Below are positions 5,751 through 46,602 of a DNA stretch of 64,000 nt, piece after piece. Under the pieces are notes generated by a model, which made no database searches, had not been told where the DNA came from, and was given only the letters and a program-made list of their open reading frames with translations. Source of the DNA: a virus (taxonomy: Duplodnaviria; Heunggongvirae; Uroviricota; Caudoviricetes). Every line of letters begins with the position of its first letter. Within the stretch, counting starts at the first letter, position 1. The translations under genes and the position numbers were made by a program. The DNA lies in the IMG/VR virus record IMGVR_UViG_3300032236_001858, one strand, 5' to 3'.

Positions 5751-6508
5751 TGAAACCCAAAGTTAGTGTAATAATACCTTGTTATAATTATGATAAGTAT
5801 ATTGAACAATGTCTTATGTCTGTTGTTTTGCAAAATCGAGATTTTAATATTGAGGTTTTAATAGGTGATGACAATTCAACAGATAAGAGTATTGAAATTA
5901 TTGAAAGATTTAGTAGGTATTATAGATATGATAATTTAAAATATAAAATATACTCACATGATAAAAATTTAGGTGAAATTAATAATACAAAATTTCTTTT
6001 AGATAATTGTGAAGGTGAATATATTGCTTATTTAGATGCTGATGATTACTGGACAGATCCAAATAAATTAAAAAATCAATTAGAGTTTTTAGATAATAAT
6101 AAAGACTACTCACTTTGTATAACAGGCTATATTCAATTAAAAAATGGTGTTGATTATAACCCAAATGTTAATTTTAAAAGCTGGCTTTGCCCTAAAGATA
6201 TAAATAATATGAATTCTGATGCTCTGTCTAAAGGTAATATAGTTGGTTCATCATCTTCTAGAGTATTCAGAAATTATAAAGATTTAGTTAAAGATTACTT
6301 TTATGATTTTCCTTATTCAGATTGGGTAATGAATTTTGAATTATCTCTAAAAGGTAAAATAGGTTATTTAAATTTTCCAAGTTATGTTTATCGAATGCAT
6401 GATAATTCTTTATCTACAAAAGATTTACAAGCTGAGAATAAAGAAGAACTATATAATAAAAGAGTTAGTATTTTAAAGTCTGAGCTAAATAAATATCTAA
6501 ATAATTAA
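5750..6508 (+). CDS. GT2 glycosyltransferase
   Basis: VSVIIPCYN, GDDNSTD, YIAYLDADDYW. Confidence 0.9.
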   Translation: MKPKVSVIIPCYNYDKYIEQCLMSVVLQNRDFNIEVLIGDDNSTDKSIEIIERFSRYYRYDNLKYKIYSHDKNLGEINNTKFLLDNCEGEYIAYLDADDYWTDPNKLKNQLEFLDNNKDYSLCITGYIQLKNGVDYNPNVNFKSWLCPKDINNMNSDALSKGNIVGSSSSRVFRNYKDLVKDYFYDFPYSDWVMNFELSLKGKIGYLNFPSYVYRMHDNSLSTKDLQAENKEELYNKRVSILKSELNKYLNN

Positions 6509-6519
6509 AAATTTTATTG

Positions 6520-6567
6520 TATATTTGTAAAAAATAAGAAAAGGGACTAAACTTTTTTAATATATAC
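6520..6567 (+). promoter_or_regulatory. tandem promoter block (TAnnTTTG + AAAAGGGAC..CTTTT + TAATATATA) upstream of tRNA-fMet
   Basis: Near-identical block recurs at 30967-31016 and 46548-46598. Confidence 0.7.
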
Positions 6568-6584
6568 ACATACAATAAAAACAT

Positions 6585-6656
6585 TGCGGGGTAGAGAAGA
6601 GGCATCTCGCCAGGCTCATAACCTGGAGGTCAGTGGTTCGAATCCACTCCCCGCTA
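6585..6656 (+). tRNA. tRNA-fMet (CAT)
   Basis: Cloverleaf, CCAGG-CT CAT AA-CCTGG, unpaired 1:72, A73. Confidence 0.9.
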
Positions 6657-6755
6657 CAAATAGAAAGACAGGACAAATATCTGATCAGCCCCAAGAAGGT
6701 AGGGTAGAGTACTCTGAACAAGTCTTTCTAAGGAATTAAAAAAATATTAAAAATA

Positions 6756-6787
6756 TTTGGTGAAATAAAAATTTCACCGTATATTTG
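6756..6787 (+). promoter_or_regulatory. Bacteroidota-type promoter for leader A
   Basis: TTTG at 6756, TATATTTG at 6780 (20-nt spacing). Confidence 0.7.
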
Positions 6788-6820: not shown

Positions 6821-6898
6821 ATGACAACTATTACTAACATAGCGTATTATTATGAGGGAGAGCGTAGCTCAAACGTCAGACTAATGTCTATGTCGTAA
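6821..6898 (+). CDS. attenuator leader peptide A (Tyr/Glu): MTTITNIAYYYEGERSSNVRLMSMS
   Basis: TAT TAT TAT GAG GGA GAG run; GTCAGACT (6875-6882) is complementary to the terminator 5' arm. Confidence 0.85.
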   Translation: MTTITNIAYYYEGERSSNVRLMSMS

Positions 6899-6920
6899 TG
6901 GTTTCATTATGATATTTTCT

Positions 6921-6956
6921 AACCCAGTCTGACTTTCAGACTGGGTTTTTTGTTTT
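6921..6956 (+). terminator. attenuator terminator A
   Basis: AACCCAGTCTGA-CTT-TCAGACTGGGTT + T tract. Confidence 0.9.
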
Positions 6957-6966
6957 AAAATAAATT

Positions 6967-7051
6967 GGGAGTATAACGTCAGCGGTGTGTAAGCCGCCCC
7001 TAATCAAAGAGACGTATAGAGGTAACTTGTGTGCAAATCCAGGTACTCCCA
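6967..7051 (+). ncRNA. atypical tRNA-like element
   Basis: Perfect acceptor-like stem GGGAGTA/TACTCCC+A; interior does not fold as a normal cloverleaf. Confidence 0.4.
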
Positions 7052-7057
7052 CAAAAT

Positions 7058-7129
7058 GGTCCTGTCGACTAATGGTCAGGTTACAAGACTTTCAATCTTG
7101 AGATGCGGGTTCGATTCCCGTCAGGACTA
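7058..7129 (+). tRNA. tRNA-Glu (TTC)
   Basis: CAAGA-CT TTC AA-TCTTG. Confidence 0.9.
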
Positions 7130-7136
7130 CAAATAT

Positions 7137-7222
7137 GCTACGGTATGCAAACCGGAATAAGCGACCAGACTTTCAATCTGGACATCGAAAGATGTGTGCG
7201 GGTTCGAGCCCCGTCCGTAGTA
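7137..7222 (+). tRNA. tRNA with TTC anticodon and long variable arm (class II-like body)
   Basis: CCAGA-CT TTC AA-TCTGG; V-arm ACATC-GAAA-GATGT; A73. Confidence 0.75.
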
Positions 7223-7229
7223 CAAATAA

Positions 7230-7313
7230 GGGAGAGCGCCAACGTTGGAGAGTTGGGCTTGTCTGTAAAACAAGTGGCTTACGCCTGAGTGGGTTCGATT
7301 CCCACCTCTCCCA
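7230..7313 (+). tRNA. tRNA-Tyr (GTA)
   Basis: CTTGT-CT GTA AA-ACAAG, long V-arm. Confidence 0.88.
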
Positions 7314-7354
7314 CAAAAAATTAAACAAAAAAAATGAAAAGTTGAAAGTGAAAG

Positions 7355-7537
7355 ATGATAATTATGTTGGTAGTTATCTTTTTATCAAAACCAGTAATGT
7401 CACAGAACATTATTAAATACCAACAAAAAACAAAAATTGATTTGAGATTAAATAAGTCAATTGAAAACCAAAAGGTTCTTTTTAAGAAAACTAAATTAGA
7501 ATCTGATAACTTTGAAATTAAAATTAGTCACGATTAG
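7355..7537 (+). CDS. small hypothetical protein, possible signal peptide
   Basis: 60-aa ORF filling a gap in the tRNA array; hydrophobic N-terminus. Confidence 0.4.
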   Translation: MIIMLVVIFLSKPVMSQNIIKYQQKTKIDLRLNKSIENQKVLFKKTKLESDNFEIKISHD

Positions 7538-7614
7538 CTGATTAATAAAAAGTTTAGAATCAGGTTTACTTTATGTTTAGACATGAAAGAATTTTTTACC
7601 AAAGAGTAAAAAAT

Positions 7615-7687
7615 GATGCTATCGACTAATGGTTTAGGTCGCCATCCTCTCAAGGTGGAAATACGGGTTCGAATCCCGTTAGCATTA
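7615..7687 (+). tRNA. tRNA-Glu (CTC)
   Basis: CCATC-CT CTC AA-GGTGG. Confidence 0.9.
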
Positions 7688-7752
7688 CAAAAAATTAAAC
7701 AAATGTTTGGATATTAAAAAAGTATCCTTATCTTTGTAAAAGAATAAAAAAT

Positions 7753-7824
7753 GGTCCCGTCGTCTAATGGTTAGGACAATGCCCTTTCACGGCATAGATT
7801 TCGGTTCAAATCCGTGCGGGACTA
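7753..7824 (+). tRNA. tRNA-Glu (TTC)
   Basis: ATGCC-CT TTC AC-GGCAT; own TAnnTTTG promoter at 7729. Confidence 0.88.
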
Positions 7825-7913
7825 CAATAAAAACAGATAACTCCGGTATGGTCTCAATCATTACTTAGAACCGGGCTTTGGAAAGTTACAAGTTGAGATT
7901 CTGTTTTTTATAT

Positions 7914-7996
7914 TGGAAGGTGGCCGAGTGGTTAATGGCGCTTGACTGTAAATCAAGTCTCTTGCGAGTACGGGGGTTCGAATCCCTCCCTTCCAA
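7914..7996 (+). tRNA. tRNA-Tyr (GTA)
   Basis: CTTGA-CT GTA AA-TCAAG, long V-arm. Confidence 0.9.
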
Positions 7997-8061
7997 CAAA
8001 AATAAAAAAAATTAAAAGGGAAGACAAAACTTTTTATATATACATTAATATAATTAAAACG

Positions 8062-8142
8062 ATGAAAAATTTAACTAACATATCAACAGCAATCATAGGA
8101 GGCGGCGCGGGAGCGAATGTCACTGGCTGGACTATGTTATAA
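8062..8142 (+). CDS. attenuator leader peptide B (Gly/Ala/Ile): MKNLTNISTAIIGGGAGANVTGWTML
   Basis: ATC ATA GGA GGC GGC GCG GGA GCG run; TCACTGGCTGG (8120-8130) pairs 11 bp with the terminator 5' arm. Confidence 0.87.
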   Translation: MKNLTNISTAIIGGGAGANVTGWTML

Positions 8143-8203: not shown

Positions 8204-8287
8204 CGGCAGGTACCGATGGTGTCTTATACACACTATAACCGTAGCGGGAAGTTGAAAACGTGGGTTCGAATCCCACCCTGCCGACCA
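8204..8287 (+). ncRNA. D-armless tRNA-like RNA, anticodon TAT
   Basis: Acceptor CGGCAGG/CCTGCCG-A-CCA, canonical T arm, GGTGT-CT TAT AC-ACACT, only 7 nt where the D arm should be. Confidence 0.7.
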
Positions 8288-30966: not shown

Positions 30967-31016
30967 TAATTTTGTATAAAATAAGTCAAAAGGGACAAAA
31001 ACTTTTTAATATATAC
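30967..31016 (+). promoter_or_regulatory. tandem promoter block upstream of leader C
   Basis: TAATTTTG...AAAAGGGACAAAAACTTTTTAATATATAC. Confidence 0.7.
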
Positions 31017-31020
31017 AACA

Positions 31021-38345: not shown

Positions 38346-38377
38346 TAAATTTATATTAAAAAATAATATATATGGAC

Positions 38378-39997
38378 ATGAAATACATTAAAACTAGAAA
38401 TAGATTTCTTGCTGAATCAAAAGGTGAAATGAGCGACAACGCTCTTCATACACTTGCGACTCATGATGATGGACAATCTCCTGATGTTCAAAAAAGTTTG
38501 GATGCACTTGACGAGGTTTCTCCTAAAGGTAAAGTGGTAACTCGTTTTGCTCCTTCACCAACAGGATTTTTACATATCGGAGGTGTTCGTACAGCTCTTT
38601 ACAACTACTTGTTTGCTAAAAAACACGGTGGTATCTTTTATGTTCGTATTGAAGATACTGACCAAAAACGTTTTGTAGGCGATGCTGAAAAATATATTCA
38701 AGACGCTTTAGAATGGTGTGGTATTGACCCAGATTATGCACCTTGGAAAGGTGGTCCTAATGGACCTTACCGCCAATCGGAAAGAGATTATTCTGGTCAT
38801 ATTCAAACTCTTTTAGATAAGGGTATGGCTTACTATGCTTTTGATACAGAAGATGATATGGTTAAAGTAAGAGCTGAAAATGCTCACTTTGCTTACGATA
38901 CTAAAACTCGTATGTCAATGAAGAACTCACTCTCTTTATCTAAAGAAGAAGTTGATGCACTTCTTGCTGCTAATACTCCATTTGTAATTCGCTTCAAAAC
39001 ACCAGAAAATAGAACTATCACCGTTAATGATGTAATTCGTGGTGAAGTTAGTTTGAATACAAATCAAACTGATGATAAAGTTTTGGTTAAATCAAATGGT
39101 ATTCCTACATATCATATGGCTAACGTATGTGACGACCACGATATGGGAACTACTCACGTTATTCGTGGTGAAGAATGGTTGCCTTCAACTCCACTTCACT
39201 TAATGTTATATGAAGCATTTGGTTGGGAAGCTCCTACATTTGCTCACCTACCTCTAATTTTGAATCCTGATGGTAAAGGTAAGTTGTCTAAACGTAAAGC
39301 TTTAGCTTTAGGTATTCCAGCTTTCCCAATGGGTGGTGAAGGTGAAGATGATAAAGGTCAAAAAGTAAAGTATCTTGGTTTCAAAGATGAAGGTTTTGAA
39401 CCACAAGCTATGTTGAATTTCTTGGTGCTTTTAGGTTGGTCCCCAACAGATACTCAAGAACTTATGACTATGGCTGACATGATTTCTAAATTTGACTTAG
39501 CTCATGTTCATAAGGCTGGTGCTCGTTTTGATGTTGAAAAAGCTAAACACTTTAATGCTCAACACTTGAACACTTATAGAAGTGATGAAGAAATTCTTTC
39601 ACATATTGATATGGGTGATACCTATCATTACTCACCAGAAAATCTTTCTAAGATTGTGGATATCTGTAAAAAGAGAGCAGTCTTTACTAAAGATTTACAA
39701 GCTGTTGCTGATATCTTCTTTAAGCCAATTGTGATTAAAGAAACAGATGTTAAGTTATTAACTGATGATTACAAAAAAGTATTCTCAGTTTTTGTAACTA
39801 AGTCAATTGATTGGACGGCTGAAACTATTAAACAAACAATTCACGACATTTGTCAAGAAATAGGTGTTAAAATGGGTAAGATAATGCCTGCTTTAAGATT
39901 GGCTATTGCTGGTGGATTACCAGGTCCAGATTTGGCAACAACAATGGAAATAATTGGTAGGGATGAAACCTTAATAAGAATTAAAAACACTTTATAA
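38378..39997 (+). CDS. gltX: glutamyl-tRNA synthetase with N-terminal tag extension
   Basis: TRFAPSPTGFLHIGG, RIEDTD, PTYH, HVIRGEEW, KLSKR; start at MKYIKT is 5 nt after a TAATATATA box. Confidence 0.93.
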   Translation: MKYIKTRNRFLAESKGEMSDNALHTLATHDDGQSPDVQKSLDALDEVSPKGKVVTRFAPSPTGFLHIGGVRTALYNYLFAKKHGGIFYVRIEDTDQKRFVGDAEKYIQDALEWCGIDPDYAPWKGGPNGPYRQSERDYSGHIQTLLDKGMAYYAFDTEDDMVKVRAENAHFAYDTKTRMSMKNSLSLSKEEVDALLAANTPFVIRFKTPENRTITVNDVIRGEVSLNTNQTDDKVLVKSNGIPTYHMANVCDDHDMGTTHVIRGEEWLPSTPLHLMLYEAFGWEAPTFAHLPLILNPDGKGKLSKRKALALGIPAFPMGGEGEDDKGQKVKYLGFKDEGFEPQAMLNFLVLLGWSPTDTQELMTMADMISKFDLAHVHKAGARFDVEKAKHFNAQHLNTYRSDEEILSHIDMGDTYHYSPENLSKIVDICKKRAVFTKDLQAVADIFFKPIVIKETDVKLLTDDYKKVFSVFVTKSIDWTAETIKQTIHDICQEIGVKMGKIMPALRLAIAGGLPGPDLATTMEIIGRDETLIRIKNTL

Positions 39998-46547: not shown

Positions 46548-46598
46548 TATATTTGTATAAAATAAGAACAAAAGGAACAAAAACTTTTTAATATATAC
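46548..46598 (+). promoter_or_regulatory. tandem promoter block upstream of leader D
   Basis: TTTG(46525)..TATATTTG...AAAAGGAACAAAAACTTTTTAATATATAC. Confidence 0.72.
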
Positions 46599-46602
46599 AG
46601 AA

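Follow-up and report, generated by a model that had tools for sequence, protein, structure and literature searches.

What does a short open reading frame (ORF) with a run of tyrosine and glutamate codons do when it stands between a promoter and a strong terminator, just upstream of tRNA genes for the same two amino acids? This arrangement, which we call unit A, begins at position 6756 on the + strand of a 64,000-nucleotide stretch of viral DNA (the window) from the IMG/VR virus record IMGVR_UViG_3300032236_001858. In our judgement, unit A is likely to be a ribosome-mediated leader-peptide transcription attenuator that would sense the decoding speed of Tyr and Glu codons and gate phage tRNA genes. 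This reading, already proposed in the initial annotation of the DNA, draws on the arrangement of the sequence elements and their geometry, on the alternative folds, and on a leader composition that is conserved and co-varies with tRNA content. From these we infer three things: that the leader is translated, that the terminator functions, and that read-through responds to the supply of Tyr- and Glu-tRNA. The proposal is supported by the architecture and geometry of unit A, by six sibling units in the same genome, by 25 units elsewhere and by compensatory changes among them.

The genome is that of a huge phage, a single contig of 476,236 bp with 29.9% GC, estimated to be 97% complete (CheckV) and containing 53 tRNA genes, all on one strand (ARAGORN). 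In the AT-rich window, about 40 tRNA genes are clustered per amino acid, without exception on the + strand (ARAGORN, Rfam). The closest public DNA is that of two uncultured phages, LR756502 (642 kb) and LR745206 (635 kb), which are taken here as members of the Mahaphage clade and whose records are unannotated. The study that placed the largest genomes in the Mahaphage clade and predicted Bacteroidetes hosts for them reported tRNAs and synthetases, and neither "attenuat" nor "leader" appears in its text (Al-Shayeb et al., 2020; PMC7162821).

The leader of unit A and its alternative folds

Between its promoter and the tRNA genes, unit A contains the following elements:

6756-6787, + strand: Bacteroidota-type promoter (consensus match), with a -33 box TTTG at 6756-6759, a 20-nt spacer and a -7 box TATATTTG at 6780-6787
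6821-6898, + strand: leader ORF MTTITNIAYYYEGERSSNVRLMSMS, 25 codons, stop codon TAA, read from the sequence
6845-6862, + strand: control codons TAT TAT TAT GAG GGA GAG (YYYEGE), read from the sequence
6821-6907, + strand: protector (1:2) hairpin, in which 6821-6849 (with a conserved ACATAG) pairs with 6882-6907 (CTATGT); the minimum free energy (MFE) and centroid folds agree
6875-6882, + strand: antiterminator 5' strand GTCAGACT, the exact 8-bp complement of AGTCTGAC at 6926-6933
6890-6915, + strand: inner hairpin, 6890-6900 with 6905-6915, 11 bp, spanning the stop codon and nested in the antiterminator helix
6921-6956, + strand: intrinsic terminator, 6921-6932 paired with 6936-6947 (12 bp, 6 GC), loop CTT, then T6GT4

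The promoter belongs to a class that is enriched in the window, where TTTG-N17-21-TAnnTTTG has 14 matches against 3.6 expected. This enrichment of Bacteroidota-type promoters fits the Bacteroidetes host predicted for the Mahaphage-clade relatives. The leader ATG lies 33 nt 3' of the -7 box, a distance of 33-35 nt in five homologous units, and the sequence upstream of it is A-rich and has no Shine-Dalgarno sequence. Thus, a short ATG-initiated ORF stands between a promoter and the putatively regulated genes, as in known attenuators. The codons of the presumed regulatory amino acids are clustered in it exactly as annotated initially: three TAT at 6845-6853, then GAG at 6854-6856 and 6860-6862 with GGA in between. 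Tyr and Glu together make up 11.6% of the phage codons, and with this usage five Tyr/Glu codons out of six consecutive ones is an event of about 2e-3 by our own binomial estimate. GAG is the minor Glu codon of the phage (22%). The Tyr/Glu cluster is kept in homologous ORFs at nine other phage loci.

Two inverted repeats surround TTAAAAA in -33/-7 spacers of the window, one in the leader A promoter (6758-6779) and one further downstream (7709-7727), and similar repeats are present in promoters of the relatives L063 and L014. Their arms vary between phages yet stay complementary (GGTGAAAT/ATTTCACC, which is the pair found in the spacer of the leader A promoter, GGATA/TATCC, GTAGA/TCTAC and AGATTT/AAATCT). 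Such a repeat may be an operator for a dimeric regulator.

The terminator (-19.2 kcal/mol) was recovered in two independent scans and is the sole strong one between the promoter and the tRNA genes. The pairing of 6875-6882 with its 5' arm, which had been noticed earlier as 8 bp long, was found again as an exact complement; the target AGTCTGAC consists of seven nucleotides of the arm and the first loop base. The antiterminator and the terminator are mutually exclusive. A perfect 8-nt complement to the arm was present in 59 of 20,000 shuffled sequences (0.3%) and in 71 of 20,000 random genomic 58-mers (0.35%), giving a p of about 0.003.

We then considered which structures could form at each position of a ribosome. 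In the fold of the untranslated RNA, the protector hairpin partly buries the antiterminator strand and the terminator is also formed; the whole leader (6821-6953) folds at -44.9 kcal/mol with z = -5.8, and none of 200 shuffles was equally stable. For a transcript that lacks the terminator 3' arm and is accessible only from 13 nt beyond the A site of a stalled ribosome, the MFE structure is the antiterminator with its nested hairpin (-21.2 kcal/mol), and the same fold results whichever control codon occupies the A site. When the ribosome is instead positioned at the stop codon, the terminator is the only structure able to form in these folds. The geometry is also suited to a stalled ribosome that frees the antiterminator strand, with an off state that is less direct than in trp. 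In unit A, 12 nt separate the last control codon from the antiterminator strand, which is how far the leading edge of a ribosome reaches. This separation ranges from 7 to 12 nt over all the 12 units of A type or related to it, whereas the distance to the stop codon varies.

Leader composition and array content in this genome and in other phages

To look for sibling units, we scanned the whole genome for strong hairpins followed by a T-run with a tRNA gene less than 250 nt downstream. Exactly seven such terminators were found genome-wide, and in 7/7 a short ORF ends just before the hairpin. The leaders and the arrays that follow them are:

leader HKHF..KWF: array Phe, His, Phe, Trp and four Lys
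leader SKSSSSRSS: array Arg and three Ser
leader YYYEGE (unit A): array Glu and Tyr
leader IIGGGAGA: array Gly and Ala
leader MNLNMNMNLTVVLNTL: array Asn, Ile, Leu, Val, Thr and Met
leader PQPQ..DQDP: array Asp and Pro
leader QYQQQQQ: array of three Gln, then a class Ic (GlnRS-family) synthetase gene

In a comparison of whole peptides with only those tRNAs that ARAGORN called, the true leader-array combination gave 69 matched residues and was the unique best of 5,040 permutations, the mean of which was 26.7.

Some other features of these units and of their surroundings were observed. The first element after terminator B is a tRNA-like gene lacking a D arm (8204-8287), whose UAU anticodon matches the ATA codons of leader B. 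A tRNA-Met gene at 6585-6657, initiator-like by eye, has both promoter types and neither leader nor terminator, which is consistent with a sensor acting only on elongation. The second of these promoter types is a motif, AAGGGA..AAACTTTTTAATATATACA, that sits just 5' of tRNA-Met and of leaders B, C, D and H1 (window 6541-6570, 8017-8047, 30990-31019 and 46570-46600; genome 218430) and is absent before leader A. Its core has seven matches against 0.86 expected, and it may serve as a promoter specific to the phage and belonging to another temporal class. No attenuator was found upstream of a second class Ic (Glu/Gln-type) synthetase gene in the window (38372-39997), and no PF00579 (TyrRS/TrpRS) gene was found in the genome.

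We also wanted to know whether leaders match arrays in other phages. For this, IMG/VR was searched with the terminator core ACCCAGTC...GACTGGGTTTTT, a query blind to leaders, and matches followed by a tRNA gene were kept. Two GenBank loci were added and duplicate leaders were removed, which left 25 distinct units. On average, 0.28 of the leader residues were cognate to their own array, against 0.163 +/- 0.02 after permutation, and none of 20,000 permutations was as high (p <= 5e-5). Examples, with the locus label first, are:

L014, unit A homologue: leader MATFETYYYEAYEEH
L015, unit A homologue: leader MNTTTNILSYYYEEK
L019, unit A homologue: leader ..IEYYYEESE, array of Tyr and Glu only
L067, unit A homologue: leader ..SSYEGYEYE
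L063, unit A homologue: leader peptide one residue off that of the window
LR756502 and LR745206, one unit A homologue each: leaders MNRFTNIETIGYTGYEGAYSE... and MNTITNIASYESYYEEG..., Glu/Tyr arrays
L071: leader AYYKQYYYK, array Lys, Lys, Tyr
L059: fused E/A/I/G/Y leader IEAIGYAYEAG, gap-free Tyr-Glu-Ile-Gly-Ala array
L040: leader IGYIAEGGYEAG, array Glu, Tyr, Gly
L005 and L017: Y/Q/K/P/G/T leaders, arrays starting with Pro, Gln, and tRNAs for the remaining residues within 1.5 kb

The near-duplicates L014 and L065 differ in the control block only by a synonymous substitution (GAG to GAA), and N-terminal residues have changed. At three loci (L001 at 2796, L019 at 7739 and L067 at 4464, - strand), leader A comes immediately after tRNA-Met and lacks its own promoter; in such relatives it would be translated inside a tRNA precursor transcript.

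The alternative pairing was also found in these units. In folds of the transcript before the terminator 3' arm, the 5' arm paired near the end of the leader ORF and enclosed a nested hairpin in 18/18 units. Across 16 non-duplicate units, the energy gained by pairing the arm with the leader exceeded that of dinucleotide shuffles (Fisher p = 3e-15, Stouffer z = -13.3). RNAalifold applied to 12 whole units recovered the terminator alone because the leaders are too divergent to align; per-sequence folds and a sub-alignment of six sequences were therefore used in its place. Pairing reaches 85% in the antiterminator and inner hairpin of the six A homologues, versus 26-47% for partners slid by 1-3 columns, and the inner hairpin by itself has 88.7% of its cells paired. 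Four pairs are changed on both sides: one in the inner hairpin and, in the antiterminator core, one cell in L015 (G-C to A-U) and two adjacent swapped pairs in L019. The antiterminator pairing is thus kept in five relatives with compensatory changes. We regard this covariation as supporting and not decisive, as the six sequences are related and the structure was derived from one of them.

The terminator pattern was also looked for in bacteria. At 120 bacterial genome loci (142 matches), searched with one terminator sequence only, three of the matches listed precede tRNAs and none of these three has a leader ORF; a bacterial origin or bacterial counterparts of these units were therefore rejected.

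The tRNA array downstream of unit A

The tRNA genes and tRNA-like element that follow the terminator are:

6967-7053, + strand: non-canonical tRNA-Tyr-like element lacking a D arm, with acceptor stem GGGAGTA/TACTCCC, a U-GUA-A loop and a long variable region
7058-7130, + strand: tRNA-Glu (UUC), ARAGORN, Rfam 66 bits
7137-7223, + strand: tRNA-Glu (UUC), 87 nt, with an extra arm, ARAGORN, Rfam 47 bits, fold
7230-7314, + strand: tRNA-Tyr (GUA), ARAGORN; its best Rfam match is a sub-threshold tRNA-Sec (40.1 bits, gathering score 47)
7615-7688, + strand: tRNA-Glu (CUC), cognate to the two GAG codons of the leader, ARAGORN and Rfam
7706-7736, + strand: internal promoter-like site TTTG-N19-TATCTTTG (consensus match), TTTG at 7706-7709 and TATCTTTG at 7729-7736, with the spacer repeat GGATA/TATCC
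7753-7825, + strand: tRNA-Glu (UUC), ARAGORN and Rfam
7914-7997, + strand: tRNA-Tyr (GUA), ARAGORN and Rfam

ARAGORN and Rfam bear out the content given initially, namely two tRNA-Tyr and four tRNA-Glu genes with only GTA, TTC and CTC anticodons. The two 73-nt UUC genes, at 7058 and 7753, are distinct isodecoders that differ in their anticodon stems and loops. The Tyr-like element, called by neither ARAGORN nor Rfam, folds with z = -2.7 and occupies the first place behind the terminator in six phages (the window, L063 at 5811-5896, L015, L014, L067 and L002). Its T loop is degenerate in the window and in L063 and canonical in the others.

The initial annotation had also matched the GAG codons of the leader to the CUC tRNA. 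This is true of unit A, but no such rule is conserved among relatives, and a general correspondence between GAG in the leader and a CUC tRNA in the array was rejected because relatives break it both ways: GAG occurs in the leaders of L015 and L059, where no CUC tRNA was detected, and L065 and L040 combine a CUC tRNA with leaders that use only GAA.

The TAnnTTTG element noticed earlier at 7729 proved a good match to the consensus, with TTTG 19 nt upstream. It is of the same promoter class as that of leader A, including the inverted repeat in the spacer. This site heads the last Glu and Tyr module, which is absent from the close relative L063. These last two genes are probably also served by this unregulated candidate promoter, and it is plausible that they form a second Glu and Tyr copy expressed from it free of the switch. 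Between the terminator and the first tRNA, no promoter-like site was found in scans with the consensus pattern. A terminator scan detected none between unit A and leader B at 8062, and units A and B are thus in series.

Apart from tRNA genes, only one small ORF is found downstream of unit A, which places it outside the classical scope of attenuators, that is, biosynthesis or synthetase genes. This ORF, of 60 codons and with a hydrophobic N-terminus, lies inside the array at 7355-7537 and is absent from L063. Between the last Glu-UUC and Tyr genes, the region 7826-7913 contains a perfect 9-bp stem AAAAACAGA/TCTGTTTTT with about 60 nt between its arms and a T-run behind it; the overall fold of this region is not significant (z = -1.0).

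Proposed mechanism, other readings and known systems

In the mechanism that we propose, the host RNA polymerase would start at the 6756-6787 promoter and transcribe the 25-codon leader, and a ribosome would translate it while the polymerase advances. As the promoter is of host type, a polymerase obeying intrinsic terminators is expected. When charged tRNA-Tyr and tRNA-Glu are plentiful, the ribosome would reach the stop codon at 6896, where it would melt the inner hairpin (6890-6915) and crowd the antiterminator strand. The leader 5' half could then re-pair with 6882-6907, the terminator (6921-6947) would form, and transcription would end before the tRNA genes. When TAT and GAG are decoded slowly, possibly because host tRNA-Tyr or tRNA-Glu is scarce, uncharged or cleaved, the ribosome would stall at 6845-6862. 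It would occupy the protector 5' half and end about 12 nt before GTCAGACT, which could pair with 6926-6933 before the terminator 3' arm exists. The polymerase would then continue through the Tyr-like element, three Glu genes and a Tyr gene into what remains of the array, and the fresh tRNAs would relieve the stall in a negative feedback loop.

Several points weigh against this mechanism. For unit A alone, the energy gain of the arm pairing is not above that of dinucleotide shuffles (z = -0.64, p = 0.25), and a simple duplex energy between leader and 5' arm is weak per unit (p = 0.22 for unit A). Once the RNA is complete, an enforced antiterminator state is about 10 kcal/mol less stable than the terminator state, and the switch must therefore be kinetic, as in trp. 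From the antiterminator strand to the stop codon there are 14 nt, and a ribosome at the stop would cover only the last two bases of the strand; the off state thus leans on the protector and inner hairpins. As the MFE fold has the start codon paired, translation initiation must occur during transcription. The match of GAG to CUC is not conserved at the codon level among relatives. The comparative units are interrelated and fall into a few classes, so that the effective sample is below 25 and the permutation p-values overstate independence. The sensor cannot separate a shortage of tRNA from a shortage of amino acid, and extra tRNA is useless in the latter case. Finally, the upstream tRNA-Met promoters and the candidate internal promoter may bypass or dilute the control.

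Three other readings were weighed, and attenuation is preferred because each of them fits the data worse. The first keeps leader translation and gives it another output, either pre-tRNA processing or stability, Rho-type polarity, or a reverse logic in which a stall lowers tRNA synthesis in amino-acid starvation. The indirect off state and the confusion of amino-acid with tRNA shortage would both suit such an output, and so would the relatives in which the leader sits, with no promoter of its own, inside a tRNA precursor after tRNA-Met. We nevertheless consider it unlikely, since a strong terminator with a competing helix at the edge of a stalled ribosome is what the classical logic requires, and since under a reverse logic the stalled ribosome would have to favour the terminator, which the folds do not show.

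According to the second, the terminator is a fixed and perhaps leaky terminator or insulator, the ORF is incidental or encodes a micropeptide with a function of its own, and the tRNAs are made by constitutive read-through or from unrecognised promoters. Terminators with ACCCAGTC...GACTGGGT stems are indeed common and generic in phage and bacterial DNA, and the energy test of unit A and the internal promoter-like site at 7706-7736 point the same way. Against it stand a short ORF of array-matched composition before all seven pre-tRNA terminators of the genome, leader matches that track array content across other phages, and a peptide poorly conserved outside its cognate residues. With no promoter-like site ahead of the first tRNA, and with arm-to-leader complementarity significant family-wide, this reading has little chance of being correct.

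The third, a T-box-like RNA whose triplets would bind the anticodons of uncharged tRNAs directly and stabilise the antiterminator with no translation, has the tRNA identity of the regulated genes, the cognate triplets and the strong structure of the leader (z = -5.8) in its favour, but is very improbable given that no T-box or other riboswitch family of Rfam matched even at E up to 5, that the triplets are always in frame within an ATG-to-stop ORF, in runs of 3-8, with as many as six amino acids represented in one leader, a pattern more suited to a ribosome than to a single specifier site, and that the antiterminator strand lies at a constant distance of 7-12 nt from them, equal to the reach of a ribosome leading edge.

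If attenuation is retained, the sensor would read usable tRNA of any source, and hence would respond when phage codon use and the host pool do not match, when the host is shut off or when tRNA-cleaving defences act. Such defences are countered by phage tRNAs, and host anticodon nucleases are known to hit tRNA-Tyr or tRNA-Lys (PMC10264068, PMC11555353, PMC12409363). The link between unit A and these defences is speculation. The seven leaders cover Phe/His/Trp/Lys, Arg/Ser, Tyr/Glu, Ile/Gly/Ala, Asn/Ile/Leu/Val/Thr/Met, Asp/Pro and Gln. Tentatively, and with more doubt than belief, one may see in them a panel of codon-specific sensors of decoding speed, with which the phage would monitor the usable host tRNAs for each amino acid and supply replacement tRNAs only for the species running short during infection, an on-demand counter-defence and supply circuit and not a nutrient regulation. 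The shortage could come from such nucleases or from host shut-off.

The prevailing view is that bacteria adjust tRNA gene expression as a whole, through growth rate and the stringent response, and not for each tRNA species separately. The reason for and the timing of phage tRNA expression are debated, the main ideas being codon compensation and escape from tRNA-cleaving defences. A leader switch before tRNA genes would, if true, be a direct and tRNA-specific feedback in which a slow codon turns on its own tRNA genes, and huge phages would measure the translation capacity of the infected cell and respond to it in a modular way. Full-text literature searches (leader peptide, attenuation, tRNA genes or operons, phage) found no published leader-peptide attenuation of tRNA genes. 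The kind of mechanism is already known; what is new is the class of regulated genes, the viral setting and the "barcode" leaders that list the content of their arrays. Since leader composition predicts array content, it also provides an annotation rule for phage tRNA arrays, including non-canonical tRNA-like genes missed by standard tools. Unit A itself is a candidate for a simple Tyr/Glu decoding sensor with Bacteroidota-type expression signals.

We finally compared unit A with known systems. Its nearest equivalents are the units of LR756502 and LR745206, which have the same promoter, leader, terminator and tRNA-array modules. In Rfam searches of the window at gathering and permissive thresholds, only tRNAs passed. 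The sub-threshold hits of the leader (rli38 at 32 bits, the trpB motif at 30 bits, PyrR and the L10 leader) are non-specific and reflect a hairpin followed by a terminator. Like the trpB ncRNA motif (RF04312), unit A has a large-loop hairpin (here ACAUAG...CUAUGU), a spacer and an intrinsic terminator; its score of 30 bits (E = 0.011 on 173 bases) is below the gathering threshold of 59, and it does not belong to that family.

With the T-box of Firmicutes (RF00230), unit A would share a tRNA-dependent antitermination, a choice between terminator and antiterminator, and translation-related target genes. A T-box, in contrast, lacks a leader ORF and recognises uncharged tRNA itself by means of a specifier codon and the T-box sequence, and neither a Stem I specifier nor a T-box sequence was matched by Rfam in unit A at the gathering score or at E up to 5. 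The pheST/pheM system of E. coli is closer, as it is a leader-peptide attenuation of a translation-apparatus gene that responds to charged tRNA, and the sibling unit E of the phage is predicted likewise to gate a GlnRS-family gene. It differs in that pheST are cellular synthetase genes under a single amino-acid specificity, whereas unit A precedes viral tRNA genes.

Leader-peptide attenuators are best known from the amino-acid biosynthetic operons of E. coli and Salmonella (trpL, hisL, pheL, thrL, leuL and ilvL). As in the trpL type, unit A has a short ORF of translated type, clustered cognate codons and predicted protector, antiterminator and terminator structures that exclude one another; a stalled ribosome would free the antiterminator strand, and the antiterminator is weaker than the terminator. 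The multivalent leaders of thr and ilv parallel its Tyr and Glu leader. Unlike the trpL type, unit A is viral, has a Bacteroidota-type promoter and no Shine-Dalgarno sequence, carries its antiterminator strand inside the ORF, 14 nt before the stop codon, and would regulate tRNA genes and not enzymes, so that its product would relieve the stall directly as tRNA and not through the amino acid.

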